Positions 4,381 to 20,880 of a stretch of 21,926 nt of DNA are shown in pieces. The notes beneath the pieces were generated by a model. The model made no database searches. It was not told where the DNA came from and was given only the letters and a program-made list of their open reading frames with translations. Positions within the stretch are counted from its first letter, which is position 1. Each line of letters begins with the position of its first letter. The position numbers and the translations under genes were made by a program. The stretch is from IMG/VR virus record IMGVR_UViG_2585427776_000012; one strand, given 5' to 3'. The DNA is from a virus. Its lineage: Duplodnaviria; Heunggongvirae; Uroviricota; Caudoviricetes.

Positions 4381-4946
4381 TATCGCGTCCTCAACAATGA
4401 ATTTTGTGATGCGGTGCCTGGTGCCTCCAGGTGACGTTAACCAGTTAACAATTAACGCCGGATACAGAGAATCCACCCATAACACTGTTTTTGGTTTTAA
4501 CTGTTCCGCGTGCGCTCAGCCGCATTCACCACATCACAAAATTCACTTTAAAAAGGGCGGCAGAGCAGTCACGGAGTAAAACTGATACCGCCAAACGTCA
4601 CCAGAAAATTGATAACAGAGGGCGTTGCAGCGGGGTTGTCACTTAAGCGTATGGTCAACCTGACAACCCGGTGTCCTCAACGGGGGAAGGAATAACCCCG
4701 CCATACTTACCGCCGCGCCATTTCGCGGATTGCCACAACCGGAAGCGCACGGTCGACGAAAATTTAACGACAGGCTATCTATGAACCAGCTACCTCGCCG
4801 TGCGCTTTCGCGTTATGGTCTGACTTTTCAGGGAAATATCCTTTCAGTAAACTGTCAGTGCCGGATTCTTATCCGTGTCCGGCGCACGACCACACGCTGT
4901 CACGAGAGGTCTCCATTCTCAACCAGTAACCTCAATGGAGGATAAA

Positions 4947-5480: not shown

Positions 5481-5713
5481 CAGTCAGTGTTTCTGGTTAA
5501 CCAGCGACGCGCGCCAGCTTCAGTTTTAAACGTTTTGCTTCTGGTATATGTCATCGCGGTAAACGTGCCGTCCTGGTTGGGAAACACGCCGCATACCAGA
5601 GATTCGTTGTTGCCAAGCTCGATAGTATCCATGCTGACCTCATTTCCCCTTAACGCCGGGGTAGCGGAACAAAAACCTGCTGCATAGTTATTAAAGTTGA
5701 ACCCTGCCGTCAT
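5480..5713 (-). CDS. Hypothetical early-left protein (77 aa, or 50 aa from the internal start at 5632)
   Basis: First ORF downstream of the presumed pL region. The internal ATG at 5632 has the better RBS (GAGGT). Function unknown. Confidence 0.45.
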   Translation of the reverse strand: MTAGFNFNNYAAGFCSATPALRGNEVSMDTIELGNNESLVCGVFPNQDGTFTAMTYTRSKTFKTEAGARRWLTRNTD

Positions 5714-5924
5714 GTTCTTACGCCTCGGGCTGGCTACTTAACCCCTGACCACTGCCTGGTAACTCGAAGTATTGCCCTGCATTCTGTGGGGTGGGGAGAG
5801 GGAATGAATTAAGTTTAGTAAAATGAACTTTTCAGGTCAATGTTTTTTTATCAAAACATTTTAAGCAGGCAGCTGTTAAGCCATCACCACGATGGCATAC
5901 AGTTAATCAAATAGATGAGGTCGG

Positions 5925-6563
5925 TTAAATATTTTGTTGAATTTTAAAGCATACGCCCAATATGCAAGATAGATCATCCAGCATAATTGAAGGGTAGCGA
6001 GGATTCGTGGGGACTAAAAGAATATCCGGCCCTTCTATCTCCAGTTTACGAATGACAGGTGTTGTGGTCCCTTTGGGTAAGGCAAGGACAATATTTCCTG
6101 GTTGTACGGTTCGATCGGGATCAACAAAAACTGTTGAACCATTTGGGATGGAAACTCCCCCACCAGATGTTGACATACTGTCACTCTCTAGAACAACTGC
6201 AAAGGTATTGGCCGGGATTTCTCCGACAAGCTGCACACAAGAGGTTATTGAGGAATTTTTCATATAATCACTCCAGCTTGCTGCCTGCTGAAGTGATAGT
6301 AGCGGAACCGTTTTTATCGGCGGTAAAGATAGATCAAGCGAATCACCTGTATTTAACTCTCCTCCATTAAGAAGCCAATTTTCGTTTACTTTCAATATTT
6401 TTGCCAGTGAACTTATGTAACGCGAGGACGGCGCTCCTCCACCGTTCATCCATTGACTTACGGAGCCTTTTGATGCGCCAGTGGCATTGACAAGGTCTTT
6501 GCCTTTCAGGTTTAGCGCATGCATACGTTGGGTTATGCGTTCAGATATTGTTTGCTTGTTCAT
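5925..6563 (-). CDS. cI-like prophage repressor (N-terminal HTH, C-terminal LexA/S24 peptidase-like domain)
   Basis: 212-aa ORF divergent from the cro-like gene. N-terminal HTH-like segment (GASKGSVSQWMNG...). C-terminal region is S24-like (SMSTSGG ... IRK). Confidence 0.8.
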   Translation of the reverse strand: MNKQTISERITQRMHALNLKGKDLVNATGASKGSVSQWMNGGGAPSSRYISSLAKILKVNENWLLNGGELNTGDSLDLSLPPIKTVPLLSLQQAASWSDYMKNSSITSCVQLVGEIPANTFAVVLESDSMSTSGGGVSIPNGSTVFVDPDRTVQPGNIVLALPKGTTTPVIRKLEIEGPDILLVPTNPRYPSIMLDDLSCILGVCFKIQQNI

Positions 6564-6655
6564 GTTTTGATTTTAAAACACAGATGGTTTTGTTTCTTGA
6601 CTTTCTTTGGTTTTGATTATTAAACTTTTGGCGTTCAGTTTTATGGAGCGACTCA
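6564..6655. promoter_or_regulatory. Divergent immunity-region promoter/operator interval (pRM/pR analogue)
   Basis: 92-bp AT-rich spacer between the divergent repressor and cro-like genes, with repeated TTTTGATT-type motifs and a TTTTAAAA palindrome. Operators not individually resolved. Confidence 0.5.
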
Positions 6656-6897
6656 TGAAAAAATCAGAAGTATTAGGCTATTTTGGCGGAGTTGTTAAAA
6701 CAGCCGCAGCTCTAGGAACGTCAAAAACCACAGTCAGCATGTGGGGGGAAGAGGTTCCGTGGAAATGGGCGTTGCTAATTCAGGCAGTCACTGCCGGGGC
6801 GCTCAAATATGAGTTACACATACCGACGGTTGTCATTCCCGGTTCTGATCATAATCCGCCTTCTAACCAAGGGGGGATTCATGAAAATCAAGCATGA
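6656..6897 (+). CDS. Cro-like HTH regulator (YdaS-family-like)
   Basis: 80-aa ORF with GGAG RBS 6 nt before the ATG at 6656. HTH-like segment TAAALGTSKTTVSMW. First gene of the rightward operon, divergent from the repressor. Confidence 0.7.
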
Positions 6898-7306
6898 ACA
6901 CATCCGCATGGCGATGAATGCCTGGGCGCGTCCTGATGGCGAAAAAGTTCCGGCAGCTGGAATAACCCAGGCTTATTTTGAGTTGGGTATGACGTTTCCT
7001 GAACTGTACGACGACAGCCATCCGGAAGCCCTGGCTCGCAATACCCAGAAAATTTTCCGCTGGATAGAGAAAGACACCCCTGATGCAGTTGAAAAAATTC
7101 AGGCGTTGTTACCAGCGATCGAAAAGGCAATGCCACCTTTGCTGGTGGCCAGAATGCGCAGCCACAGTTCAGCTTATTTTCGGGAGCTGGTGGAGACGCG
7201 GGAGCGACTGGTGAGAGACGCTGATGATTTTGTCGCAGTGGCAATCGCCGGTTTCAATCAGATGAACCGTGGTGGCCCGGCAGGAAATGCTGTGGCAGTA
7301 CATTGA
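6881..7306 (+). CDS. YdaT-like (CII-position) regulator
   Basis: 141-aa ORF overlapping the cro-like 3' end. RBS AAGGGGGGA before the ATG at 6881. N-terminus MKIKHEHI recalled as typical of Rac YdaT-type proteins (from memory, not searched). Confidence 0.6.
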   Translation: MKIKHEHIRMAMNAWARPDGEKVPAAGITQAYFELGMTFPELYDDSHPEALARNTQKIFRWIEKDTPDAVEKIQALLPAIEKAMPPLLVARMRSHSSAYFRELVETRERLVRDADDFVAVAIAGFNQMNRGGPAGNAVAVH

Positions 7307-7377
7307 CTGACAATAGCCATATCGAATCGCTTCCGGCAACTCGTGAGTAAAAAGATTCGGTATCAGAAGAGGTGAGT

Positions 7378-8448
7378 ATGGCTAACGCCTGGCTCAGATT
7401 ATGGCATGACATGCCAAATGACCCTAAGTGGCGAACAATTGCCAGGGTGTCAGGGCGGCCAATTGCAACAGTGATGGCAGTGTATATCCACCTCCTGGTG
7501 AGCGCGTCACGAAATGTCACGCGAGGTCACATTGATGTCACGACAGAAGATTTGGCAAGTGCGCTCGACGTGACAGAAGAGGTAATTGATTCAATTTTGC
7601 AGACGATGCAGGGGCGGGGACTTGATGGTGATTTAATCACTGGATGGGAAAAACGCCAGGTGCTTAAAGAGGACAACGGCAATATTTCGCAAACCGCAAA
7701 ATCTCCTGCAGAGCGCAAGAGGGCGCAGCGAGAGAGGGAAAGAAAGCGGGAACAAAATGGCGATTGTCACGGCGCGTCACGAAATGTCACGCACATGTCA
7801 CGACGAGTCACGACAGATAAAGATACAGATAAAGATACAGATCAAGAAGATCAAAACACTATGGTCCATGGCGTAAAAAACGCCACGAACCAGGCAGGGG
7901 ATGTTCAGACCGTCAATCTTGGTCAGCCAGCAGGCACGACACCGGAAGCCGATTCAGCGTATGCGCTGAAAGCCGATTCGGGCGCTGTGCAGCAGGTGAT
8001 GACCGCAAGGCCGGAGCAATCACACCAACTGCAGCAGCCCGAAGCCGATTCCGCCATTCAGCGGGAAGCCGATCGGGTAGTCCCGGAAAACACCGGGCAG
8101 TCTGTGGGACGAGTGGATTATCCGGATGTGTTCGAACAGGTCTGGCGGGAGTACCCGTTGCGTGCTGGGGCAAACCCGAAGAAATCCGCTTTCAGTGCCT
8201 GGAAGGCCAGATTACGCGAGGGGGTGCCACCAGAGGCCATGCTGGATGGCGTGAGGCGTTACGCAAGATACTTGGCGGCTACCGGGAAAACGGGAACGGA
8301 ATTTGTTCAGCGAGCGACGACGTTTTTTGGACCGGACCGGAATTTTGAGAACCCCTGGTTGCTCCCGGTAAGCGGCACGAACAACCAGCGTTGTGTGAAT
8401 CATATTTCTGAACCGGATAACGAAATTCCGCCGGGCTTCAGGGGGTAA
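7378..8448 (+). CDS. Replication initiator-like protein (YdaU/DUF1376-like, O-protein position) carrying internal origin iterons
   Basis: RBS GAAGAGG before the ATG at 7378. N-terminus MANAWLRLWHDMPNDPKWR recalled as YdaU-like. Gene contains two iteron clusters and an AT-rich repeat, as lambda O contains ori-lambda. Confidence 0.65.
   Translation: MANAWLRLWHDMPNDPKWRTIARVSGRPIATVMAVYIHLLVSASRNVTRGHIDVTTEDLASALDVTEEVIDSILQTMQGRGLDGDLITGWEKRQVLKEDNGNISQTAKSPAERKRAQRERERKREQNGDCHGASRNVTHMSRRVTTDKDTDKDTDQEDQNTMVHGVKNATNQAGDVQTVNLGQPAGTTPEADSAYALKADSGAVQQVMTARPEQSHQLQQPEADSAIQREADRVVPENTGQSVGRVDYPDVFEQVWREYPLRAGANPKKSAFSAWKARLREGVPPEAMLDGVRRYARYLAATGKTGTEFVQRATTFFGPDRNFENPWLLPVSGTNNQRCVNHISEPDNEIPPGFRG
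7504..7850. repeat. Candidate replication origin: two clusters of GTCACG iterons at about 10-bp phasing plus an AT-rich tandem repeat
   Basis: Cluster 1 around 7504-7546 and cluster 2 around 7765-7816 (5 evenly spaced copies: tGTCACGgcgcGTCACGaaatGTCACGcacatGTCACGacgaGTCACG). Immediately followed by ATAAAGATACAG x2 and an A-rich tract (7817-7850). Confidence 0.7.
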
Positions 8449-8488
8449 GTGTTAATTTCTGGTCATGAGGTAATTTTCAGGAGGGCTT

Positions 8489-8911
8489 GTGGCAAAAGTT
8501 TTTACACAAGAAGAGCGGGAAAAAATTAAAGGACAGGTTGTTGAACTCGTACGCCAGAGTGGGCGTGAGACGTTACGGCAACTGGAAGTCAAGACAGGTG
8601 CGACAAGATATCTGATGAGCGTTCTCGCAAGAGAGCTGGTTGCCAGCGGCGATGTATGCAACTCTGGTTACGGGTTATTCCCGTCTGAACAGGCGCGTAA
8701 GGACTGGCAAAATGCCCGTAAAAAGCTCTCAAGGGCAAAGCTGAAGAAACCATCTGCGGTTGATCCGGACCTTATCTGGTCATTACCTGACGGAGAAATA
8801 CGTCGCTACGACAGGCGTCAGAACATAATCTGTCGCGAGTGCCGGAAGAGTGAAGTTATGCAGCGCATATTGTCGTTTTATCAGGGTGATGTTCGGTATT
8901 TATTGAAGTGA
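8489..8911 (+). CDS. Hypothetical protein (140 aa) downstream of the replication gene
   Basis: GTG start at 8489 with AGGAGG 6 nt upstream. Basic, helical; no recognisable catalytic motif. Occupies the position where a helicase loader (P/DnaC-like) would usually be. Confidence 0.55.
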   Translation: MAKVFTQEEREKIKGQVVELVRQSGRETLRQLEVKTGATRYLMSVLARELVASGDVCNSGYGLFPSEQARKDWQNARKKLSRAKLKKPSAVDPDLIWSLPDGEIRRYDRRQNIICRECRKSEVMQRILSFYQGDVRYLLK

Positions 8912-9042
8912 CGAGATTAAAGTGCATTAGTTCAGATGCAAATTGACATTTTGTGGCACAGGGTAGAGCTAGCGTGGTTGTCCGCTTTGTGCCAATAGCG
9001 GACATTGCTGGCTCATGGTATGTTAGTTTAAGGAGGCAGGTT

Positions 9043-10065
9043 ATGCCCTGTATTTCGCTGTGGTATAATAGTTGCGCAATTGATACAAGGGAGCGTTACA
9101 TCGTGAAAATTGTTTTCGAGGTTAATGGAAAGAAAGTTCCACTAAAATCTTTAAAATACATAAGCAAAAAAGATCAACTCGAAGTAATGAAAAACTGGTT
9201 CTTTGAAAACTTTGAAGATCCGGCAAATGCTTGTCCGTATGAAAGTAGAGAAGGTGGCTATGCTTACATATATGGCGGGCCGTATGATGCGAGCGAAGAA
9301 CTACAATCCATCTTCGGTCAATATGTTAAATCTGAGTATATTGAGGAATTAGTAGATGAATTACAAACACAATGTTTTGACTGGTCTGGAAACTCAAATA
9401 ATATAGATGATTGGTACGATGATGATATCTACGACGCTGTAACGTCTTCCGGTAATCCGTATTTAAAATTCATTGATAATATCGATAAAATAAAAAAACT
9501 TGCAAAAGATAAAACTGAACAACAGCAAAAAAAACACTTGCTTAGTTTGCTCTACACGAATGTTATTACAGCTTTGGAAACGCTTTATGTTGAGCTATTC
9601 ATTAATTCTATAGAGAAAGATGATGTCTACATAGCCAATTGTATAGAAAAAGGTAAGACTGAATTTAAAGTAAGCAAAGATATTGCTGCGTTGCCTTTCA
9701 AGGGTGAACCCATCGAGAAAATTAGGGGAGAGCTAATCAGGTCAATCAAGGAACACTTGATCAGTGCAAGCTGGCATAGCACTAAAAAGGTAATCGACCG
9801 CTATGAAGCTACATTCGATATAAAAGTACAAAAAGACTGTCCGATAGAAGCTATTGAATTGGCAACCCTCAATCGAAATCACTTAGTGCATCGTGGTGGA
9901 AAGGATAAAGAAGGGAACCTCGTAGTGATTACAGACCAGGATCTTGAAACGCTGATTGAAAATGCATCGAACCTGGCAATTATGCTCTACAACAGTTTAA
10001 ATGTAGCAACGAATAAAACCACCATTTTGCAACCAGATGACAAACCGTTCATTCATGAATTTTAA
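9043..10065 (+). CDS. AT-rich cargo gene A: protein with C-terminal HEPN-like Rx4H motif (putative RNase / abortive-infection effector)
   Basis: ATG at 9043 with AAGGAGG 5 nt upstream; alternative GTG start at 9103 with AAGGGAG upstream and an extended -10 (TGGTATAAT, 9061-9069). Sharp drop to roughly one-third GC (by eye). C-terminal helical region carries LNRNHLVHRGG, matching the HEPN R-[N]-x3-H signature. Confidence 0.6.
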   Translation: MPCISLWYNSCAIDTRERYIVKIVFEVNGKKVPLKSLKYISKKDQLEVMKNWFFENFEDPANACPYESREGGYAYIYGGPYDASEELQSIFGQYVKSEYIEELVDELQTQCFDWSGNSNNIDDWYDDDIYDAVTSSGNPYLKFIDNIDKIKKLAKDKTEQQQKKHLLSLLYTNVITALETLYVELFINSIEKDDVYIANCIEKGKTEFKVSKDIAALPFKGEPIEKIRGELIRSIKEHLISASWHSTKKVIDRYEATFDIKVQKDCPIEAIELATLNRNHLVHRGGKDKEGNLVVITDQDLETLIENASNLAIMLYNSLNVATNKTTILQPDDKPFIHEF

Positions 10066-10080
10066 TAGCGCAGGTCATAC

Positions 10081-11082
10081 ATGGATATTCGCACACGAAA
10101 GACAAAATTTTTAGAGTCGTTAGATTCAACTGAAGTGATACGCAAAGCAGTAAGTCTCGCTATAGATTGCATTATTGATAATCATAATAGTAATGAAGAT
10201 ACCCCCTTAGTTATTACCAGCTATGATGATCTCTGTAGAATCCAGGTGCTAAATTATGTACAGGAGTTTTGCGAAGCTGCATTCCCTGATATGGATGAAT
10301 ATTACTTTAGTCCTAACATACTTCGCATCAACGGCAAGACTAGTGAAGAAGCTTGTATTAACTTAATTAAACTCTTAAGAAGTACAAAAGGCATGCTATT
10401 CTGGTCCGATGCCCCATCGTGGTTCGCTAGCCTCCCCGACGGATTATTCCATGTTGTTAACATTGATCAAAAAATCGTTACTCGCGGCCTTAATAAGAAA
10501 AACTCTAAGCCGACAATAATCAATAAAGATTACAGTGTAGATACACTACTATCAGAGCTATTTTTGAATGGCGCACACATGGAGCAATCCAACGTACACA
10601 ACGTTTCTGAGGGAAACATGAAGTTCTATGATGAATGCCATGCTGGATTAATCAGACCAATACCCGCTCCAATAGGCGCGTCATACGATGAAGAGATCAC
10701 AATTAATTCTCCAGATTGGCAAAAGCTCGCGTGTGTAGCTTTACGCCGCTATCAGTCGAAGGAATGTCATGACGGAATGCAATGGGATACAACCGATCAT
10801 GGTTGGACTGATGTAATCGCGTATCCATTCGTCGAAGAAATACAATCAATGGATAATAGTGGTTATCGACAATGTTTAGTTGGGCTGGTCACAATAAACA
10901 ATTCAAATGCAAATTCTCCGTACCTATCTACCGTTTGGATACATCCATTTTATCGCAGGAGAGGGTTATTAAGTAAGTTATGGCCAAAATTACAAGAGTT
11001 ATATGGAAGTAACTTCGAAATTGAGCGACCTAATGAAAATATGAAAGCATTTCTGAAAAGTGCGAAACACGCAGATTACTAA
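10081..11082 (+). CDS. AT-rich cargo gene B: protein with C-terminal GNAT-fold acetyltransferase-like domain
   Basis: 333-aa ORF 15 bp after gene A, same AT-rich composition. C-terminal IHPFYRRRGLLSKLWPKL fits GNAT motif A (acetyl-CoA binding R/Q-x-x-G-x-G/A). N-terminal ~220 aa unrecognised. Confidence 0.6.
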   Translation: MDIRTRKTKFLESLDSTEVIRKAVSLAIDCIIDNHNSNEDTPLVITSYDDLCRIQVLNYVQEFCEAAFPDMDEYYFSPNILRINGKTSEEACINLIKLLRSTKGMLFWSDAPSWFASLPDGLFHVVNIDQKIVTRGLNKKNSKPTIINKDYSVDTLLSELFLNGAHMEQSNVHNVSEGNMKFYDECHAGLIRPIPAPIGASYDEEITINSPDWQKLACVALRRYQSKECHDGMQWDTTDHGWTDVIAYPFVEEIQSMDNSGYRQCLVGLVTINNSNANSPYLSTVWIHPFYRRRGLLSKLWPKLQELYGSNFEIERPNENMKAFLKSAKHADY

Positions 11083-11398
11083 TTTATGAATCAGTCTGTG
11101 GAGTTAGGGTTGGTGTCAACAAGTAGGGTAAGAGCCTCAACGTGATGCTATGCCGACCTGCTCCCTGAGAATTCACACAGAAGGCTGCTAGCAATGTCTG
11201 CAGATCGCTCAAAGCGGACTAGAAGGTTAGCTTGCGTCGGACTTGGCGTATTTAAAGAAGTGCTGGTGGTGACTGGTTGTTGTGTTCCATTTCTACAGAA
11301 CAAAATCACAGAAACTATACCCAATAGTTATATTGAATCAATGATGAGACAGCCTCATATTTATCAGAACTGGTGTACGTCCAATACAGGAGGTTGTC

Positions 11399-11488
11399 GT
11401 GCTGGTTCTCAAATGTGCGCTAGCTATTGCGGCTGTAATGGCAATTTATTGTCTTGCTGTTGTTCTTATGGATCGCCTTTCTGATTGA
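11399..11488 (+). CDS. Candidate small hydrophobic peptide (29 aa) just upstream of the hok promoter
   Basis: AGGAGG (11388-11393) 5 nt before GTG at 11399. Product VLVLKCALAIAAVMAIYCLAVVLMDRLSD is a single predicted transmembrane helix. Overlaps the 3' end of a Cys-rich 96-aa ORF in another frame, so only one, or neither, may be real. Confidence 0.25.
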   Translation: MLVLKCALAIAAVMAIYCLAVVLMDRLSD

Positions 11489-11569
11489 TTTTATATTGGC
11501 GAGGTGACGGGAGTTAAGTAGAATTGCTGCGGGTGCTTGAGGCTATCTGCCTCAGGCATGAACACCAAA

Positions 11570-11650
11570 GGCAGATAGAGAAAAGCCCCAGTTAATATTA
11601 CGCGTCCTGCAAGACGCTTAACATTAATCTGAGGCTCAATCTATGAACGG
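11570..11650 (-). ncRNA. sok: Predicted Sok-like antisense RNA (position inferred, boundaries approximate)
   Basis: In hok/sok loci the antisense RNA is transcribed opposite to the hok leader across the mok translation start. Placed by analogy; promoter not confidently identified. Confidence 0.3.
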
Positions 11651-11699
11651 CAAATCTAGGTTAGCCTCTTACGTGCCGAAAGGCAAGGAGAAGCAGGCT

Positions 11700-11855
11700 A
11701 TGAAGCAGCAAAAGGCGATGTTAATCGCCCTGATCGTCATCTGTTTAACCGTCATAGTGACGGCACTGGTAACGAGGAAAGACCTCTGCGAGGTACGAAT
11801 CCGAACCGGCCAGACGGAGGTCGCTGTCTTCACAGTTTACGAACCTGAGGAGTAA
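11700..11855 (+). CDS. hok: Hok-family type I toxin (in-frame upstream extension from 11643 = mok-like leader ORF)
   Basis: Product MKQQKAMLIALIVICLTVIVTALVTRKDLCEVRIRTGQTEVAVFTVYEPEE matches the Hok/Gef family as recalled. Upstream leader GGGTGCTTGAGGCTATCTGCCTCAGG resembles the conserved hok mRNA 5' end. Intrinsic terminator downstream. Confidence 0.85.
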   Translation: MKQQKAMLIALIVICLTVIVTALVTRKDLCEVRIRTGQTEVAVFTVYEPEE

Positions 11856-11920
11856 GAGACCCGGCGGGGGAGAAATCCCTCGCCACCTCTGATGTGTCAG
11901 GCATCCTCAACGCACCCGCA

Positions 11921-11946
11921 CTTAACCCGCTTCGGCGGGTTTTGTT
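11921..11946 (+). terminator. Rho-independent terminator of the hok transcript
   Basis: ACCCGCTTCGGCGGGT hairpin followed by TTTTGTTTTTT. Confidence 0.75.
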
Positions 11947-12022
11947 TTTTCCTGGCATTCTGGTTTACAATTCGCACGTCAGCCTGAACACCTGACACCT
12001 GCTGCGCCAGCAGAGAAAACAG

Positions 12023-12295
12023 ATGGCGCACAAAACCAAATTTCACAATTCTGATACCGACCTTGCCATCCGGCATGAGCGGCGTTCACACGCATTTAAA
12101 ACCGACTGGTACCAACACCCACCATGTACTGAAGAACAGGCCGAATGGCTGATTCATAACTACCGCAGACGTGGATATGAGTTTAGGAAAGCCCTCAGCC
12201 TCGATTATCGTCACTGGATAATCTCCGTCAGGCTTCCTTACTCCGAACGCCCACCGCGTCCGTCCCGCACATTCCAGCAACGCATCTGGAGGTAA
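12023..12295 (+). CDS. Hypothetical nin-region protein (90 aa)
   Basis: ORF between hok and the YdfU-like gene; stop overlaps the RBS/start of the next gene. No recognisable motif. Confidence 0.5.
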   Translation: MAHKTKFHNSDTDLAIRHERRSHAFKTDWYQHPPCTEEQAEWLIHNYRRRGYEFRKALSLDYRHWIISVRLPYSERPPRPSRTFQQRIWR

Positions 12296-12296
12296 C

Positions 12297-13343
12297 GTGC
12301 GGGTATTACTTCGACCTGTTCTGGTACCGGAACTCGGGCTGGTGATCGTTAAGCCGGGCCGTGAATCCATGCCGGTATTCCACAATACCCGGGTACTGGT
12401 GGAGCCGGAACCGAAAAGCATGCGTAATCTGCCGTCCGGGGTCGTTCCTGCCGTTCGCCAGCCGCTGGTGGAAGACAAAACATTGCTGCCGTTTTTCAGT
12501 AACGCACGGGTAATTCGTGCTGCTGGTGGTGCTGGTGCATTGTCTGACTGGCTGTTGCGCAATATTAAATCCTGCCAGTGGCCACACGGCGATTATCATC
12601 ACAGCGAAACCGTTATTCACCGTTATGGTACCGGCGCAATGGTGTTGTGCTGGCACTGCGACAACCAGCTGCGTGACCAGACATCCGAATCACTCGGGCA
12701 ACTTGCTCATCAAAACCTGTCAGCATGGATGATTGACGTCATCGGTCACGCAATAAGCGGTACGCAGGAGCGTGAATTATCTCTGGCTGAATTATCCTGG
12801 TGGGCGGTCCGCAATCAGGTGGCGGACGCGCTACCGGAAGCGGTATTACGTCGTTCGCTGGGGTTGCGTGCGGAAAAAATCCGCTCAATGTACCGTGAAA
12901 GCGACATCGTACCGGGAGAGCAGACCGCCACCAGCATACTGAAGCAGCGCACAAAAAATCTTGCGCCGCTGCCTCACCCCCACCAGCAAACCCCGCCACA
13001 GGAAGAGACGGTGGTCAGCATTGCCGTTGATCCTGAGTCTCCGGAATCTTTCATGAAACGACCTAAACGTCGCCGCTGGGTTAACGAGAAATACACACGC
13101 TGGGTGAAGACACAGCCGTGTGCGTGTTGTGGTAAGCCAGCCGACGATCCCCATCACCTGATTGGTCATGGTCAGGGCGGAATGGGGACAAAATCTCACG
13201 ATATTTTCACGCTACCGCTGTGTCGGGAGCATCACAACGAGCTTCATGCGGATCCTCTGGCGTTCGAAGAAAAGCATGGTTCTCAGGTTGATTTAATTTT
13301 TCGTTTTCTTGATCACGCCTTTGCAACTGGCGTGCTTGGGTAA
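12297..13343 (+). CDS. YdfU-like (DUF968) prophage protein with C-terminal Cys/His (HNH-like) motif
   Basis: GTG start with GGAGG 6 nt upstream. C-terminus CACCGKPADDPHHLIGHGQGG...CREHHNELH. Recalled as similar to Qin prophage YdfU; in Qin, hokD and ydfU are also neighbours. Confidence 0.65.
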   Translation: MRVLLRPVLVPELGLVIVKPGRESMPVFHNTRVLVEPEPKSMRNLPSGVVPAVRQPLVEDKTLLPFFSNARVIRAAGGAGALSDWLLRNIKSCQWPHGDYHHSETVIHRYGTGAMVLCWHCDNQLRDQTSESLGQLAHQNLSAWMIDVIGHAISGTQERELSLAELSWWAVRNQVADALPEAVLRRSLGLRAEKIRSMYRESDIVPGEQTATSILKQRTKNLAPLPHPHQQTPPQEETVVSIAVDPESPESFMKRPKRRRWVNEKYTRWVKTQPCACCGKPADDPHHLIGHGQGGMGTKSHDIFTLPLCREHHNELHADPLAFEEKHGSQVDLIFRFLDHAFATGVLG

Positions 13344-13355
13344 AAGAGGTGACTG

Positions 13356-13730
13356 ATGCTCATAGATTTGGTTTTACCTTACCCGCCGACGGTGAACACT
13401 TACTGGCGACGCCGTGGCAGCACATATTTTGTATCAAAAGCCGGGGAGCGTTATCGCCGGGCAGTGGCGCTTATTGTTCGCCAGCAGCGGCTGAAATTAA
13501 GCCTGTCCGGAAGGCTGGCGATAAAGGTGATTGCAGAGCCACCGGATAAGCGTCGTCGCGACCTGGACAATATCCTGAAAGCACCGCTGGATGCGCTGAC
13601 GCATGCGGGAGTGTTAATGGACGATGAGCAGTTTGATGAAATCAATATCGTTCGTGGTCAGCCAGTATCTGGTGGACGTCTGGGGGTGAAGATTTACCCC
13701 ATAATGCTTGAAGGGCAGGTCAAAAAATGA
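13356..13730 (+). CDS. rusA: RusA-family Holliday junction resolvase
   Basis: 124 aa. Motifs YWRRRG and DKRRRDLDNILKAPLDALTHAGVLMDDEQ match RusA (DRRRRDLDN...DALT) as recalled. Typical position just upstream of Q. Confidence 0.85.
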   Translation: MLIDLVLPYPPTVNTYWRRRGSTYFVSKAGERYRRAVALIVRQQRLKLSLSGRLAIKVIAEPPDKRRRDLDNILKAPLDALTHAGVLMDDEQFDEINIVRGQPVSGGRLGVKIYPIMLEGQVKK

Positions 13731-14548
13731 AACTGGAAGATTTACCGAAATACTACTCCCCAAAATCCCCCGGCCTGACTGATGCATCGGCCTCAACGTC
13801 GAAAGATGCGCTGAGTATCACTGATGTGATGGCCGCGCAGGGCATGACACAGAATCGGGCTGAGATGGGGTTTTCTGCGTTCCTTGGTAAAATGGGCATT
13901 AGTATGAATGACAGAGAGCGGGCAACAGAATTGCTGACAGAATATGCACTCAGTCGGTGTGATCGCGTGGCGGCGTTAAGAAAACTCCCGGCAGAAATAA
14001 AACCGGCAGTGATGCGTATTATGGCTTCGTATGCGTTTGAAGATTATGCCCGTAGCGCGGCGAGCAAAAAACAGTGCCCCTGCTGTCACGGAAAAAAATT
14101 TATTGAAAGCGAGGTTTTTACAAACAAGGTCCAGTATCCGGATGGTAAGCCGCCGGTATGGGCAAAGTGTACGAAAGGTGTGTATCCGTCTTACTGGGAA
14201 GAATGGAAAAAAGTCAGGGAGGTGGTAAAAGTTGCCTGTCCGGAGTGTGGCGGAAAGGGTGAGGTTTCCACCGCCTGTAAGGATTGCCGTGGGCGTGGTG
14301 TCGCCATTCATCGTGAAGAGTCGGTAAAACGTGGTATGCCTGTTATCAGAGACTGCCAGCGTTGTGGTGGTCGTGGCTGTGAAAGACTACCATCAACGGA
14401 GGCATTTAATGCCATATGCAAAGTGACGAGTGCTATCACGCTTGATACGTGGAAAAAATCAGTGAAACGCTTTTACGATACGTTGGTGGTTCGGTTTGAC
14501 ATTGAAGAGGCATGGGCGGAGCGGCAGTTAAAGAGGGTAACGCGATAG
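13727..14548 (+). CDS. Late-gene antiterminator Q (long, zinc-binding Q type)
   Basis: Start overlaps the rusA stop (ATGA). Several CxxC pairs (CPCCHG, CPECGG, CKDCRG, CQRCGG). Followed by a pR'-like promoter and short-transcript terminator. Confidence 0.75.
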   Translation: MKLEDLPKYYSPKSPGLTDASASTSKDALSITDVMAAQGMTQNRAEMGFSAFLGKMGISMNDRERATELLTEYALSRCDRVAALRKLPAEIKPAVMRIMASYAFEDYARSAASKKQCPCCHGKKFIESEVFTNKVQYPDGKPPVWAKCTKGVYPSYWEEWKKVREVVKVACPECGGKGEVSTACKDCRGRGVAIHREESVKRGMPVIRDCQRCGGRGCERLPSTEAFNAICKVTSAITLDTWKKSVKRFYDTLVVRFDIEEAWAERQLKRVTR

Positions 14549-14553
14549 TGTTG

Positions 14554-14581
14554 TTGATTTTTCCCGAATCTGTGGTAAATT
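14554..14581 (+). promoter_or_regulatory. pR'-like late promoter (Q utilisation region)
   Basis: TTGATT, 16-bp spacer, TAAATT immediately downstream of Q; an intrinsic terminator lies about 50 nt downstream, as for lambdoid pR'/tR'. Confidence 0.45.
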
Positions 14582-14628
14582 TGCTCTAACGATGGGCGTT
14601 TTATGCCTGACGTTAGAAGATTTTTTAC

Positions 14629-14653
14629 ACCCCGCCGCCTGGCGGGTTTTTTA
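14629..14653 (+). terminator. tR'-like intrinsic terminator
   Basis: CCCGCC-GCCT-GGCGGG hairpin followed by TTTTTT. Confidence 0.7.
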
Positions 14654-14774
14654 TGACTGAAATCGCGTCAGTACAGTAAACGCGCTGGTGGCGGTGAATA
14701 CCTGTCTTTCAGCTTGCTGGCTTTTTCGACAAGAGTTATTGGTGTGTCACGTTAACCGGAAAAGGGAAAAAGAC

Positions 14775-14972
14775 ATGCTAAAACAGCAGGATATGACAGA
14801 AACCGCCAGAGTAGTGTTTAATGAATTAAGCGTTACCGAACCGGCGACAGTCGGGGAGATTGCACAGAATACTTACCTTTCACGCGAACGCTGCCAGTTA
14901 ATACTGACCCAGCTGGTTATGGCGGGTCTGGCAGACTATCAGTTCGGTTGTTACAGACGCCTTCCGCAGTGA
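14775..14972 (+). CDS. Small putative HTH/winged-helix protein (65 aa)
   Basis: ATG at 14775 with AAGGGA upstream. Segment VGEIAQNTYLSRERCQLILTQL is HTH-like. The ORF track's longer version starting at 14688 lacks an RBS. Confidence 0.5.
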   Translation: MLKQQDMTETARVVFNELSVTEPATVGEIAQNTYLSRERCQLILTQLVMAGLADYQFGCYRRLPQ

Positions 14973-14976
14973 AGGC
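14944..14976 (+). terminator. Intrinsic terminator overlapping the stop of the small HTH gene
   Basis: GCCTTC-CGCAGT-GAAGGC hairpin followed by TTTTTTATTT. A second 11-bp inverted repeat (GCTGGTGGGTG ... CACCCACCAGC) follows at about 14998-15030. Confidence 0.6.
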
Positions 14977-15122
14977 TTTTTTATTTGTGGTAAATGGGCG
15001 GCTGGTGGGTGTTAGGGGCACCCACCAGCCATCTGCTCATGCGTTGGGTTCACAAGCAAACCTCAGGCCCACTGCTTTGCGCAAAAGCAGAATGAGCCTA
15101 TCAGAGACAGGCTTAATGATCC

Positions 15123-16172
15123 ATGCTTAATACTGTAAAAATATCCAGTTGTGAGTTAATCAACGCCGACTGCCTGGAATTTATCCGGTCGTTACCCGAA
15201 AATTCTGTTGACCTGATAGTCACGGACCCGCCGTACTTTAAAGTGAAGCCTGAGGGCTGGGATAACCAGTGGAAGGGCGACGATGATTACCTGAAGTGGC
15301 TGGACCAGTGTCTGGCGCAGTTCTGGCGGGTGCTGAAACCTGCCGGAAGTCTTTACCTGTTCTGTGGTCATCGCCGGGCATCTGATATCGAAATCATGAT
15401 GCGTGAACGCTTCAGTGTGCTGAACCATATTATCTGGGCGAAGCCGTCCGGACGCTGGAACGGATGCAACAAGGAAAGCCTGCGGGCGTATTCCCCCGCC
15501 ACAGAGCGCATTCTGTTCGCGGAACATTATCAGGGGCCGTATCGTCCGAAAGATGCCGGGTATGCGGCGAAGGGCAGTGCACTGAAACAGCATGTGATGG
15601 CCCCGCTGATTTCTTACTTTCGTGATGCGCGCGCGGCCCTGGGGATAACGGCAAAACAGATTGCAGATGCCACAGGAAAGAAAAACATGGTGTCGCACTG
15701 GTTCAGTGCCAGTCAGTGGCAGCTACCGAACGAAAGCGATTATCTGAAATTACAGTCGCTGTTTGCCCGGGTGGCAGAAGAGAAACATCAGCGCGGTGAA
15801 CTGGAAAAGCCCCACCACCAGCTGGTGGATACGTATACGTCACTGAACCGGCAGTATGTGGAGCTGCAGAGTGAATATAAGCATCTGCGGCGGTATTTTG
15901 GTGTGACGGCGCAGGTGCCGTACACGGATGTGTGGACACATAAACCGGTGCAGTTCTATCCCGGGAAACATCCGTGCGAAAAACCGGCAGAAATGCTGCA
16001 GCAGATAATCAGCGCAAGCAGTCGTCCGGGTGACCTGGTTGCAGATTTTTTTATGGGCTCAGGTTCAACGGTAAAAGCGGCACTGGCGCTCGGGCGTCGT
16101 GCGATTGGCGTTGAACTGGAGACCGGACGTTTTGAGCAGACAGTCAGGGAAGTTCAGGATTTAATCGTTTGA
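15123..16172 (+). CDS. Orphan DNA methyltransferase (beta-class amino-methyltransferase, N6-adenine or N4-cytosine)
   Basis: Motif IV VTDPPY near the N-terminus and motif I DFFMGSGST near the C-terminus (beta-class order). No adjacent restriction endonuclease. Same position as the methyltransferase of Stx-type phages. Confidence 0.85.
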   Translation: MLNTVKISSCELINADCLEFIRSLPENSVDLIVTDPPYFKVKPEGWDNQWKGDDDYLKWLDQCLAQFWRVLKPAGSLYLFCGHRRASDIEIMMRERFSVLNHIIWAKPSGRWNGCNKESLRAYSPATERILFAEHYQGPYRPKDAGYAAKGSALKQHVMAPLISYFRDARAALGITAKQIADATGKKNMVSHWFSASQWQLPNESDYLKLQSLFARVAEEKHQRGELEKPHHQLVDTYTSLNRQYVELQSEYKHLRRYFGVTAQVPYTDVWTHKPVQFYPGKHPCEKPAEMLQQIISASSRPGDLVADFFMGSGSTVKAALALGRRAIGVELETGRFEQTVREVQDLIV

Positions 16173-16221
16173 AACGGATGAGATTGCAGAATTAATTACG
16201 CACCATTATTATTCTGCTCCC

Positions 16222-16297
16222 GGCCCTTTAGCTCAGTGGTGAGAGCGAGCGACTCATAATCGCCAGGTCGCTGGTTCAAATCCAGCAAGGGCCACCA
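16222..16297 (+). tRNA. tRNA-Ile2 (anticodon CAT, lysidine type; a Met reading is not excluded by sequence alone)
   Basis: Cloverleaf by eye: acceptor GGCCCTT/AAGGGCC, D-arm GCTC...GAGC, anticodon loop CTCATAA, T-loop TTCAAAT, encoded CCA. Closely resembles E. coli ileX as recalled. Confidence 0.8.
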
Positions 16298-16304
16298 TCA
16301 CATA

Positions 16305-16381
16305 CCGCCATTAGCTCATCAGGAAAGAGCGCCAGCCTTCGAAGCTGGTTGCGCGGAGTTCGGGTCCCCGAAGGCGGTCCA
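16305..16381 (+). tRNA. tRNA-Arg (anticodon read as TCG; one mismatch each in acceptor and T stems)
   Basis: Anticodon stem CCAGC/GCTGG with loop CTTCGAA, D-arm GCTC/GAGC, encoded CCA. Anticodon read by eye and should be confirmed with a tRNA scanner. Confidence 0.6.
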
Positions 16382-16394
16382 TTATCTGTATCCT

Positions 16395-16471
16395 GCGTTG
16401 TTAGCTCAGCCGGACAGAGCAATTGCCTTCTAAGCAATCGGTCACTGGTTCGAATCCAGTACAACGCGCCA
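16395..16471 (+). tRNA. tRNA-Arg (anticodon TCT, reads the rare AGA codon)
   Basis: Acceptor GCGTTGT/ACAACGC, anticodon stem ATTGC/GCAAT with loop CTTCTAA, T-loop TTCGAAT, discriminator G, encoded CCA. Confidence 0.8.
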
Positions 16472-16513
16472 CACTTATTTTCCCTGGCTCGCTTTTGCGG
16501 GCTTTTTTTTAAA

Positions 16514-16732
16514 TGTCTCACAATTCAGGCGGTTGACTGTTGTCTGGTTTGCGGGGAGTTTGTTAAAAGAAACTGGCATGGTGAATCCCCCTGTGCGGAG
16601 GGGCAATCAGCGAGTAGGTATATGGGATAATCGCGGATTCAGGTGCTGGTACTGAATTCACCGGGAGGCACCCGGCACCATGCAATGGCACATAGCGCCA
16701 CTCTCCAGCCCCTCTCCGGAGGGGCTTTTCTG
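16514..16732 (+). repeat. Structured non-coding element, copy 1 (candidate prophage sRNA gene with intrinsic terminator)
   Basis: Shares with copy 2: CTCACAATTCAG, TTGAC box, CATGGTGAAT + CCCCCT..GCGGAGGGG hairpin, TGAA-TCACCGGGAGGCACCCGGCACCATG, and terminator AGCCCCTCTCCGGAGGGGCTTTT (16707-16729). Central segment differs. No credible ORF. Confidence 0.55.
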
Positions 16733-16920
16733 TGCCGGATACATCACAGTTTCTGGAACCTTAGGTACTACAGTATCAGTCAGGGTGCTATATTTTCAGA
16801 TGTGATGAAAGCCTGTCAGCAGGCAGGGCGTATCGGAAATGACCCAGTAGAGAAAACGTTGACTCAGATACCGGTGCTGAGTTACCGGGAAACCGGCATC
16901 ACATGACCGCTATCCTTCCA

Positions 16921-16948
16921 GGCCCATCCGCTCCGGTGGGCCTTTTTA
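16921..16948 (+). terminator. Intrinsic terminator between the two repeat copies
   Basis: GGCCCATCCGCTCCGGTGGGCC hairpin followed by TTTTT. Ends a short unit that starts at an extended -10 (TGCTATATT, about 16780). Confidence 0.65.
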
Positions 16949-16982
16949 CTGCAGAAAACAGGTTCCCCGTTAAATGCTATGT

Positions 16983-17217
16983 TGCTCACAATTCAGTAAG
17001 TTGACAGTTGCCTGTCAGACTGGGCATTTGTTAAAAAAATTTCGCATGGTGAATCCCCCTGAGCGGAGGGGCGACTGGTGACGGTATAATCTCTGATTAT
17101 CAAAACGAGAATGACGCGGGTTTAGTGGCACCGGGCTGAACTCACCGGGAGGCACCCGGCACCATGTGCATGATGATACAGATACGCGGCTTTAGCCCCT
17201 CTCCGGAGGGGCTTTCT
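16983..17217 (+). repeat. Structured non-coding element, copy 2 (paralog of 16514-16732)
   Basis: Same conserved blocks as copy 1, TATAAT at 17085-17090, terminator AGCCCCTCTCCGGAGGGGCTTT at 17193-17214. A further GCCCGCG...CGCGGGC hairpin follows at 17232-17257. Confidence 0.55.
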
Positions 17218-17446
17218 TATGGACAAAAAAAGCCCGCGCTGGGAGACGCGGGCGGCAAGGAATAAACAATAAAACGTGAAGTAATATTTCAGCTGGCGAA
17301 TAATACCCCATAGTAATCACTCTGCGCAACTGCGCGGTCTTTTTCGAATTGCGGGCTGTAGTCTCCCTTCTGCCATTGTCCTGTAACTTCCGGACTTCAG
17401 CCTGCTCCTTATCTGACTCACAACATTATCCCGCCCGGGAGGATTC

Positions 17447-17707
17447 ATGGCATTTAAACACTATGACGTGGTCAGGGCGGCATCGCCGTCAGACCTTGCG
17501 AAACGACTGACACAAAAACTGAAGGAGGGCTGGCAGCCGTTTGGTAGTCCGGTGGCCATAACCCCTTATACCCTGATGCAGGCGATTGCAGCAGAAGGTG
17601 ATGTGGTCGTCAGTGGTGCAACTGAGCCGGAGTGGTACTACGTCATCGTACTGGCCGGGCATCCGGTGTGGAGGTGGACAAGGTTGCAGAGGCTTTCGGA
17701 AAACTGA
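17447..17707 (+). CDS. Hypothetical protein (86 aa), probably 3'-truncated at a deletion junction
   Basis: Strong RBS GGGAGGA before the ATG at 17447. The ORF runs into the out-of-frame start of H-homologous sequence, so its C-terminus is probably not native. Confidence 0.5.
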   Translation: MAFKHYDVVRAASPSDLAKRLTQKLKEGWQPFGSPVAITPYTLMQAIAAEGDVVVSGATEPEWYYVIVLAGHPVWRWTRLQRLSEN

Positions 17708-19904: not shown

Positions 19905-20641
19905 TGCAGGATATTCACGAAGAAAGTCTGAACGAGTCGGTTAAGTCAGAGCAGTCACCGCGGGTGGTACTCTGGGAAATCGACCTGACGGTGCAGGGCG
20001 GTGAGCGGTATTTTTTCTGCAATGAGCTGAATGAAAAAGGGGAGCCGGTGACCTGGCAGGGGCGTGAATATCAGGCGTACCCGATTGAGGGGAGTGGCTT
20101 TGAGATGAACGGGAAGGGCAGCAGTGCCAGACCATCGCTGACGGTGTCCAATCTGTTTGGTCTGGTCACCGGGATGGCGGAAGACCTGCAGAGTCTGGTG
20201 GGGGCCACGGTGGTCCGCCGCCGGGTGTATGCCCGTTTTCTGGATGCGGTGAATTTCGTTGCGGGCAATCCGGAGGCGGACCCGGAGCAGGAGCTGAGTG
20301 ACCGCTGGGTGGTGGAGCAGATGTCGCAGCTGACAGCCATGACGGCCTCGTTTGTGCTGGCCACACCGACCGAGACGGACGGGGCGCTGTTTCCCGGTCG
20401 TATCATGCTGGCGAACACCTGTATGTGGACCTACCGCTCTGATGAGTGTGGTTACACGGGCGGGGCTGTGGCGGATGAGTTCGATAAACCCACCACGGAT
20501 ATCCGTAAGGACAGATGCAGCAAGTGCATGCGCGGGTGTGAACTGCGCAGGAATGTCGGCAATTACGTCCGTTACCGGAAAATGTTACCTGGTTATCGCC
20601 GGAAGGGGAGTTTCAGAAGTGGAACGGCACAGCCTGGGTGA
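19904..20641 (+). CDS. Minor tail protein L (C-terminal ~25 aa replaced by out-of-frame tfa-derived sequence)
   Basis: 245 aa; strong similarity to lambda gpL through ...[16 protein letters not shown], after which the sequence diverges (recombination junction about 20565-20578). Confidence 0.8.
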
Positions 20642-20880
20642 AGGATACGGAAGCAGAAAAACTGTTCCGGATCCGGGAGGCGGAAGAAACAAAAAACAAC
20701 CTGATGCAGGTAGCCAGTGAGCATATTGCGCCGCTTCAGGATGCTGCAGATCTGGAAATTGCAACGGAGGAAGAAACCTCATTGCTGGAAGCCTGGAAAA
20801 AGTATCGGGTGTTGCTGAACCGTGTTGATACATCAACTGCACCTGATATTGAGTGGCCTACGAACCCTGTCAGGGAGTAA
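20578..20880 (+). pseudogene. Tail fibre assembly protein (Tfa) 3' fragment fused out of frame to the end of L
   Basis: Frame-1 translation [94 protein letters not shown] is the typical Tfa C-terminal region. No N-terminus or own start; the K, I, J and stf genes are absent. Confidence 0.75.

Follow-up and report, generated by a model that had tools for sequence, protein, structure and literature searches.

Loci of the hok/mok/sok type have been described on plasmid R1, in the phages 933W and Sp5 (VT2-Sakai), and in Escherichia coli K-12, and these systems are the closest to the locus considered here, which lies at positions 11531-11950 (+) of the IMG/VR virus record IMGVR_UViG_2585427776_000012 (Caudoviricetes), a stretch of 21,926 nucleotides (nt) that was analysed as a whole and is called the window below. 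The phage-borne hokW-sokW pair is a working type I toxin-antitoxin system by experiment: HokW is toxic, SokW neutralises HokW, and the sokW RNA has been seen by Northern blot (Takada et al. 2021, PMC8621323). K-12 holds both hokC-mokC-sokC (gef), a chromosomal locus reportedly inactivated by an insertion element (PMC12214031), and hokD (relF) in the Qin prophage, whose product, according to a recent preprint, is toxic when overexpressed and neutralised by Sok (bioRxiv 10.1101/2025.08.07.668861).

The locus in the window is very probably a hok/mok/sok type I toxin-antitoxin cassette of the hokD/hokW type that is structurally intact and also works in the way of its relatives. All the defining elements of a hok mRNA unit were found, and are conserved, within 11531-11950 (+), nearly the exact interval (11530-11950) at which the original prediction, made from the letters alone, had placed a Hok-type toxin locus. 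Its identity and molecular mechanism are well supported by homology. The elements on which the comparison relies are as follows, with the RNA elements defined after Le Rhun et al. 2022 (PMC9841398).

11496-11524 (+): hok/mok promoter, with -35 TTGGCG (11496-11501), a 17-nt spacer, and -10 TAGAAT (11519-11524)
11531-11948 (+): predicted full-length hok mRNA of about 418 nt, from the Rfam leader, the fold, and the end of homology among copies
11531-11542 (+): tac (translational activator), GGGUGCUUGAGG, pairing with fbi (closed form) or ucb (open form)
11584-11589 (+): ucb, or anti-Shine-Dalgarno box, AGCCCC, pairing with the mok Shine-Dalgarno sequence (closed) or tac (open); invariant in alignment A2
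11631-11634 (+): mok Shine-Dalgarno (SD) sequence GAGG, by direct reading, 8 nt before the ATG at 11643
11643-11855 (+): mok reading frame of 70 codons, from the list of open reading frames (ORFs) and its translation, in frame with hok
11581-11651 (-): Sok antisense RNA of 71 nt starting at 11651, with coordinates from the annotated SokW of 933W
11658-11686 (-): Sok promoter, with -35 TTGCCT (11686-11681), a 17-nt spacer, -10 TAACCT (11663-11658), and 6 nt to the start
11663-11668 (+): dcb box AGCCUC, open-form partner of the mok SD region GAGGCU (Rfam consensus helix)
11687-11690 (+): hok SD sequence GGAG, by direct reading
11700-11855 (+): hok toxin gene of 51 amino acids (aa), MKQQKAMLIALIVICLTVIVTALVTRKDLCEVRIRTGQTEVAVFTVYEPEE, with the stop codon at 11853-11855
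11863-11884 (+): G+C-rich stem-loop of the 3' untranslated region (3' UTR), GGCGGGGGAG-AAAU-CCCUCGCC, present in the minimum free energy (MFE) fold
11905-11917 (+): fbi (fold-back inhibitory element), CCUCAACGCACCC, the complement of tac apart from a single bulged C
11924-11950 (+): intrinsic terminator, with a stem at 11924-11941 and a T-run to 11950 (terminator scan)

The hokW-mokW-sokW locus of 933W and Sp5 shares 93.5% nucleotide identity with the cassette over 417 nt, and likewise has an in-frame 70-codon mok, a 71-nt Sok with an extended hairpin, and the tac, ucb, dcb, and fbi elements. The block 11657-11794, which takes in the Sok promoter, the hok SD sequence, and hok codons 1-31, has zero differences from 933W. 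The two loci differ in the allele of the Sok 5' tail and its target (...AUGAACGGCAAAUCU in the window, ...AUGCUGAACACAUGU in hokW), in the C-terminus of Hok (TVYEPEE in the window, VDYESEK in HokW), and in the terminator that follows fbi. They also differ in position, the window cassette being located 5' of ydfU-like, rusA, and Q genes, whereas hokW of 933W is found close to where the linear genome record ends and runs on the other strand from L0134, the adjacent large ORF.

In the case of hokD from the K-12 Qin prophage, the encoded toxin is one residue off (A46V), the two copies share their 3' UTR, fbi, and terminator, and each has ydfU/DUF968 near by. The gene order in Qin is relB-relE-hokD-rem-(ORF)-ydfU, which puts hokD downstream of relBE and two genes upstream of ydfU, in agreement with the neighbourhood given for this homologue in the original prediction. 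For the Qin copy, the match to the window is confined to the part from about 11686 on (positions 207-470 of a 481-bp query), which begins just before the hok SD sequence; missing from it are the promoter of hok, tac, ucb, the start of mok, and the entire Sok gene. Of the two, the window copy is thus the intact version.

The hok/mok/sok locus of R1 and R1-type IncF plasmids (parB) shows the same element order, and the blocks that it has in common with the window are GCUUGAGGCU, GGCAGA.AGA...AGCCCC, GAGGC, the mok AUG, UAGCCUCUUAC, and CAAGGAGAAG. The Sok promoter of R1-type loci is found in the same position and with the same 17-nt spacer. Contrary to the window cassette, which is prophage-borne, the R1 locus is plasmid-borne, its Hok is only 40% identical to that of the window over 45 aa, and its mok, in R1 proper, is out of frame with hok (as deduced from the codon numbering in PMC9841398). 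An R1-type copy on an IncFII plasmid (L086) has mok in frame, even though R1 itself does not. An 18-nt insertion in the Sok hairpin of the window is absent from both the R1-type and the hokC loci.

The leader of the chromosomal hokC-mokC-sokC locus is clearly homologous, its mok is in frame and has 69 codons, and the annotated start of SokC is 9 nt inside mokC, the same as for Sok in the window. The hokC locus differs in its shorter Sok hairpin, in its 3' UTR, in the IS186 element found immediately downstream in K-12, and in its Sok-tail allele, which is that of hokW and not that of the window.

Toxin, mok, and the hok transcript

The assignment of the ORF to the Hok family, already made in the original prediction, is borne out by the Pfam profile HOK_GEF (PF01848), which matches along its full length (1-42/42) with 78.6 bits against a cut-off of 22 (E 2.6e-22), and by PHROG 251, 'MokW-like host killing' (E 2.8e-32). 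The protein holds Cys15 and Cys30 by direct reading, and is identical to WP_000813256.1, the 'HokD' of E. coli ATCC 11775. From K-12 HokD it differs only by A46V, at a residue that is D in the toxic HokW, and the toxin frame is intact. Loss of leader elements or an inactivating change in hok had been named beforehand as the observations that would speak against a hok/mok-type locus; instead, all leader elements are present and the sole change relative to the toxic K-12 HokD is A46V.

Two observations concern the 3' end of the gene. The Tyr47 codon of hok is part of a UACG motif at 11838-11841 (+), which by direct reading is a candidate site of A-to-I editing by TadA (Tyr to Cys); K-12 hokD mRNA is reportedly edited at the homologous Tyr at a low level of 6% (PMC12214031). 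The A46V change (GCT to GTT at 11836) is located 2 nt upstream of this motif. An antisense ORF of 54 aa at 11669-11833 (-), which overlaps hok, was regarded as merely mechanical.

The mok ATG at 11643 is found 57 nt (19 codons) upstream of the hok start, in the same frame, and the reading frame runs through the hok start to give the 70-aa product that had been described as a mok-like extension. The same 57-nt in-frame geometry is found in mokW and mokC. A survey of 150 related phage-borne copies located the mok SD sequence and ATG in 139, of which 119 hold an in-frame mok of 70 codons, 15 a 19-codon mok ending at the hok start, and 5 other out-of-frame versions. This variability of the mok frame fits the published view that it is the translation of mok, and not its product, that matters (PMC9841398), and hok translation is predicted to be coupled to that of mok. 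Around the hok start, 11695-11709 forms a helix with 11823-11838 that is 99.8% paired among 63 related sequences, a sequestration consistent with the dependence of hok translation on mok.

Transcription of the unit is expected to start at about 11531, as judged from the promoter spacing and the start of the Rfam model. The promoter was found by a sigma-70 consensus scan, matches the consensus at 9 of 12 positions, and keeps its -10 TAGAAT in nearly all of 76 related copies. The leader begins with GGGUGCUUGAGGC at 11531, as do those of the R1-type, hokC, and hokW loci. Its resemblance to the conserved 5' end of hok mRNA, pointed out earlier, was confirmed by Rfam RF01794, which covers 11531-11705 with the full model (1-157/157) at 113.3 bits (gathering score 59; E 1.8e-25). 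This model has the hok-sense orientation and marks the hok leader and the Sok target, not the transcription of Sok. A minus-strand match to the same model at 11467-11589 is weak (19.9 bits) and was taken as noise.

At the other end, the predicted terminator was located at the stem and T-run listed above, and is common to K-12 hokD and most related copies, but not to hokW of 933W. The 3'-UTR stem-loop at 11863-11884 is 99.1% paired in the 63 sequences, with G-U, A-U, and G-C alternatives at one pair. In R1, the last stem-loop of the truncated mRNA protects that mRNA (PMC9841398), and the stem-loop in the window is likely to act as a stop for 3' trimming. A full-length but sub-threshold match to isrK, a small RNA of the Salmonella Gifsy-1 prophage, at 11864-11945 (+) was rejected (27.2 bits against 50), as it probably reflects only a generic hairpin and terminator over the 3'-UTR hairpin, fbi, and the terminator. 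Among the 76 copies, homology stops at about 11950, just past the terminator, and the sequences diverge upstream of about 11515, just before the hok -10, so that the cassette appears as a discrete, self-contained module of about 435 bp.

The Sok gene and the RNA switch

The antisense gene that had been postulated opposite the leader was located by homology to the annotated SokW. The mokW, hokW, and 71-nt SokW annotations of 933W (AF125520) transfer to the window at a constant offset of +10010, giving 11643-11855, 11700-11855, and 11651-11581 (-), respectively. The predicted fold of Sok consists of a single-stranded 5' tail of 14 nt (GCCGUUCAUAGAUU), a hairpin of about 25 bp, and a final UUUU (-31.0 kcal/mol, z -5.3), and the tail is complementary to the mok AUG with its flanks and to the loop of the target hairpin. 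Positional homology to SokW and SokC, the identity of the promoter, and the fold all point to a cis-antisense gene with its own promoter and terminator hairpin.

The original prediction had found no evident promoter for this gene and left open whether the locus was intact or decayed. The first part stood, as the sigma-70 consensus scan, which found the hok promoter, gave no Sok promoter; the element is missed because its -10 matches TATAAT at only three of six positions. The promoter was instead recognised through its base-for-base identity with the mutationally validated sokW promoter of Sp5/933W, so that the locus is seen as structurally intact and the suggestion of decay falls away. A 'pro-less' sokW mutation, made with primer YO-421, abolishes antitoxin activity (PMC8621323), and comparison of this primer with the wild type reads as TAACCT changed to GAGCCG. 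The hokW-mRNA probe YO-597 of the same study, CCTTGCCTTTCGGCACGTAAGAGGCTAACC, covers the sokW promoter and matches the window exactly at 11659-11688 (-). The R1-type plasmid locus aligns TTGCGC-17-TATCCT at this position, and the exact promoter is found in 53 of the 76 related copies. The presence of a Sok promoter is thus taken as settled by homology to sokW, sokC, and R1, and not by the scan. The alignment to characterised hok/sok and chromosomal loci, suggested in the original prediction as a check, in this way located both the sok promoter and the fold-back elements.

The full-length transcript is predicted to fold with an MFE of -174.4 kcal/mol, while shuffled sequences give -127.6 +/- 6.4 (z = -7.4), which argues against a chance structure. 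This MFE fold is the closed form, with a 12-bp helix between tac and fbi (11531-11542 with 11905-11917) and the pairing of ucb with the mok SD sequence. The open form, in which tac pairs with ucb and the mok SD sequence with dcb, is the consensus structure of RF01794 and has -162.3 kcal/mol in the full-length RNA, so that the closed form is favoured by 12.1. In constrained folds of shortened RNAs the open form is the MFE for those ending at 11904, 11895, and 11890, and is at most 0.2 kcal/mol above it for ends at 11900 and 11885. The first 40 nt of the nascent RNA fold into a metastable hairpin (-19.8 kcal/mol) in which tac pairs with 11549-11559; a metastable 5' structure is also known from the nascent hok mRNA of R1 (PMC9841398). 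In the 63 related sequences the tac/fbi helix keeps 12 of 12 pairs and is 100% paired, the tac/ucb and SD/dcb helices are about 100% paired, and covariation is found in the peripheral hairpins (8 pairs changed on both sides, with 1.7 expected). The predicted energetics mirror the conformational switch of plasmid R1, and the open form would be the one that is translatable and accessible to Sok.

The mechanism that may be proposed for the cassette takes its steps from plasmid R1 hok/sok and Sp5 hokW-sokW. The full-length hok mRNA, stable and transcribed from its own promoter, would be held closed by the pairing of its 5' and 3' ends through tac and fbi; in this form ucb would mask the mok ribosome-binding site and Sok would be unable to bind. 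Slow 3' trimming would then remove fbi, allowing the 5' end to refold onto ucb and the mok SD sequence to enter the SD/dcb target hairpin. As long as the abundant but short-lived 71-nt Sok is made, its 5' tail would nucleate on the loop of the target hairpin and the mok AUG, blocking translation of mok and, by coupling, of hok, and leading to cleavage by RNase III. Once Sok synthesis stops, whether by loss of the element, shut-off of transcription, or prophage induction, mok and hok would be translated, and the 51-aa Hok would insert into the inner membrane and collapse it.

The role of the cassette in its prophage

The role is the least certain part of this account. Most likely, Hok made on prophage induction hastens killing and lysis of the cell and raises phage release, as shown for hokW, possibly together with a contribution to the stabilisation of the element. 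For hokW, mitomycin C treatment makes Sok vanish and HokW appear in a RecA-dependent manner, and deletion of the hokW locus delays growth arrest and halves phage release (PMC8621323). The role linked to induction takes first place here, since no other has been demonstrated for a prophage copy.

Several points weigh against this account of an intact cassette acting on induction. Every functional step for this copy is inferred; hokW is located elsewhere in its phage and has another terminator, so that its induction-linked behaviour may not transfer; and the structurally intact chromosomal hokA, hokB, and hokC are reported to be unable to mediate post-segregational killing (bioRxiv 10.1101/2025.08.07.668861). 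The -10 TAACCT of Sok is a weak match to the consensus, which the scan did not find. As for the switch, the MFE of an RNA ending at 11900 keeps the metastable 5' hairpin in place of the tac/ucb stem, with the open form 0.1 kcal/mol higher, and the switch helices are nearly invariant in the close family of 63 sequences, a pattern that amounts to conservation and gives no support from covariation.

An alternative that we consider rather unlikely, as the main role, is prophage addiction, in which the cassette would stabilise the prophage by post-segregational killing of cells that excise or lose it, as R1 hok/sok does for its plasmid, and would not act as a lysis aid. Addiction is what the family is classically known for (PMC9841398), the combination of a stable mRNA with an unstable antisense RNA suits the loss of an element, and phage annotations such as 'phage maintenance protein' and 'prophage maintenance' mirror that assumption. 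Nevertheless, the sole experimental study of a prophage copy found an induction-linked effect that favours phage release (PMC8621323), and the chromosomal copies failed killing tests (bioRxiv 10.1101/2025.08.07.668861).

It is unlikely that the cassette is structurally intact but silent, transcribed but never activated in the manner of hokA, hokB, and hokC, so that neither loss nor rifampicin would lead to killing, and hitch-hiking on prophages. Many genomes hold 2-11 copies without obvious harm, which counts in favour of this view, but the very close hokW-sokW does yield HokW, and growth, viability, and phage yield are affected on its induction (PMC8621323). Moreover, the cassette, with all its switch elements and the third-codon positions of hok (0.98 identity), is strongly conserved across hundreds of prophages, which argues for selection on function.

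Abortive infection as the main role seems doubtful and distinctly unlikely. An incoming lytic phage would stop host transcription, deplete Sok, and thereby free Hok, and R1 hok/sok has been reported to lower the plating efficiency of T4 by 42% and to shrink its plaques by about 85% (Pecota and Wood 1996, cited after PMC8621323), an effect shown only at high copy number, on a high-copy plasmid; defence genes are often prophage-borne, but hok genes are not enriched near defence systems according to the preprint survey (bioRxiv 10.1101/2025.08.07.668861). Finally, a decayed remnant, with a hok ORF left without functional mok/sok control, is what the K-12 Qin hokD (relF) itself is, with relBE upstream and homology from about 11686 only, but for the window it is highly improbable, given that the promoter, tac, ucb, mok SD sequence and AUG, Sok gene with its promoter, dcb, fbi, and terminator can all be found and agree with those of intact homologues.

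Prophage setting and the hypervariable Sok target

The original prediction had placed the locus inside a prophage, and the host element is a Qin-like lambdoid prophage of E. coli: ATCC 11775 carries a lambdoid prophage to which positions 5501-17662 of the window are collinear at 98.5%. The gene order in that prophage is DUF1391/ydfA, LexA-family repressor, Cro/CI, YdaT, a hypothetical gene, DUF977, two more hypothetical genes, hokD, a hypothetical gene, DUF968 (ydfU-like), RusA, Q-type antiterminator, DNA methyltransferase, three tRNAs, and holin. The cassette is placed between replication-region genes and the ydfU-like, rusA, and Q genes, in the orientation of cro, the replication region, rusA, and Q.

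Of 5426 complete E. coli genomes, 3926 have at least 80% of the 481-bp region; genomes with any match carry a median of 2 copies and a maximum of 11, and the annotation is nearly always hokD (PGAP). It is carried by 102 phage records, including 933W, VT2-Sakai, Tritos, and mEp460. Some match is found in 1589 plasmid records; the majority of these matches are partial, at 80-90% identity, and in 257 records the coverage of the query reaches at least 80%. The exact Hok (51 aa) and Mok (70 aa) sequences are each present on at least 1000 public contigs. The preprint survey reports hok genes as enriched in prophages (bioRxiv 10.1101/2025.08.07.668861).

Other features of the window were noted in passing. 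Rfam matches above the gathering score comprise the DicF antisense RNA at 4555-4606 (-), three tRNAs 3' of the Q/methyltransferase region, the STnc100 motif in two copies, and a single IS009 element, all of which are typical RNA features of lambdoid prophages; the matches besides DicF have the coordinates 16222-16468, 16547-16737, 17015-17224, and 20639-20837 (all +). Directly upstream of the hok promoter is a conserved, unannotated block of about 330 bp (11205-11530), which goes along with the cassette in 3 phages and some 1760 E. coli genomes, with differing genes upstream of it. Within this block, an ORF for a hydrophobic 29-aa peptide (11399-11488, GTG start, SD sequence AGGAGG at 11389-11394) is intact in four copies, with about 4 synonymous and 3 conservative changes by reading of the alignment, while the aligned block is about 90% identical on average; it is listed as 'hypothetical protein' on 146 contigs. 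Neither this ORF nor one of 96 aa, also upstream of the cassette, had any Pfam or PHROG match. Further upstream of the hok module, 10081-11082 (+) encodes a 333-aa protein of unknown function, matched over its full length by PHROG 16994, whose C-terminus gives a weak match to GNAT acetyltransferases (20.0 bits, just under the Pfam cut-off of 20.7).

Within the cassette, one short segment departs from the general conservation.

11635-11657 (both strands concerned): hypervariable segment of 23 nt, made of the spacer between the mok SD sequence and AUG and mok codons 2-5, equivalent to the Sok 5' tail and the target loop

Its mean pairwise identity is 0.69, while the other cassette segments range from 0.915 to 0.99 (0.95 for the remaining leader, 0.97 for the block of the Sok promoter and hok SD sequence, and 0.915 for the 3' UTR, for instance). 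At least 10 alleles exist among 150 copies whose Hok is at least 92% identical, and that of the window is the fourth most common. Duplexes predicted between the first 20 nt of Sok and its target have a mean of -37.7 kcal/mol for cognate and -18.2 for non-cognate pairs. One allele is common to K-12 hokC and hokW, despite the greater divergence of these loci elsewhere. Among 160 IMG/VR loci, only two pairs from the same genome were usable for a comparison of alleles; the alleles differed in one pair and were identical in the other. We tentatively suggest, while regarding it as on the unlikely side, that the segment is a specificity 'barcode' whose diversity is maintained by selection or recombination; the hypervariability could also be that of a merely relaxed, recombining segment.

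The hok/mok/sok element is already known, and this copy leaves the knowledge of the family unchanged. Its value is mainly one of annotation, as it provides exact coordinates for a Sok gene and promoter that are otherwise unannotated, and shows that what is called 'hokD' in many E. coli prophages is, in contrast to the truncated copy of the K-12 reference, a hok/mok/sok unit that is complete and probably functional. A single lead reaches further: the sharply localised hypervariability of the Sok tail and its target bears on how many near-identical toxin-antisense pairs can coexist within one genome without cross-talk. If the segment does act as a barcode, its diversity would insulate several prophage-borne hok/sok copies present in one cell; alternatively, shared alleles would let the Sok of one element disarm the Hok of another.

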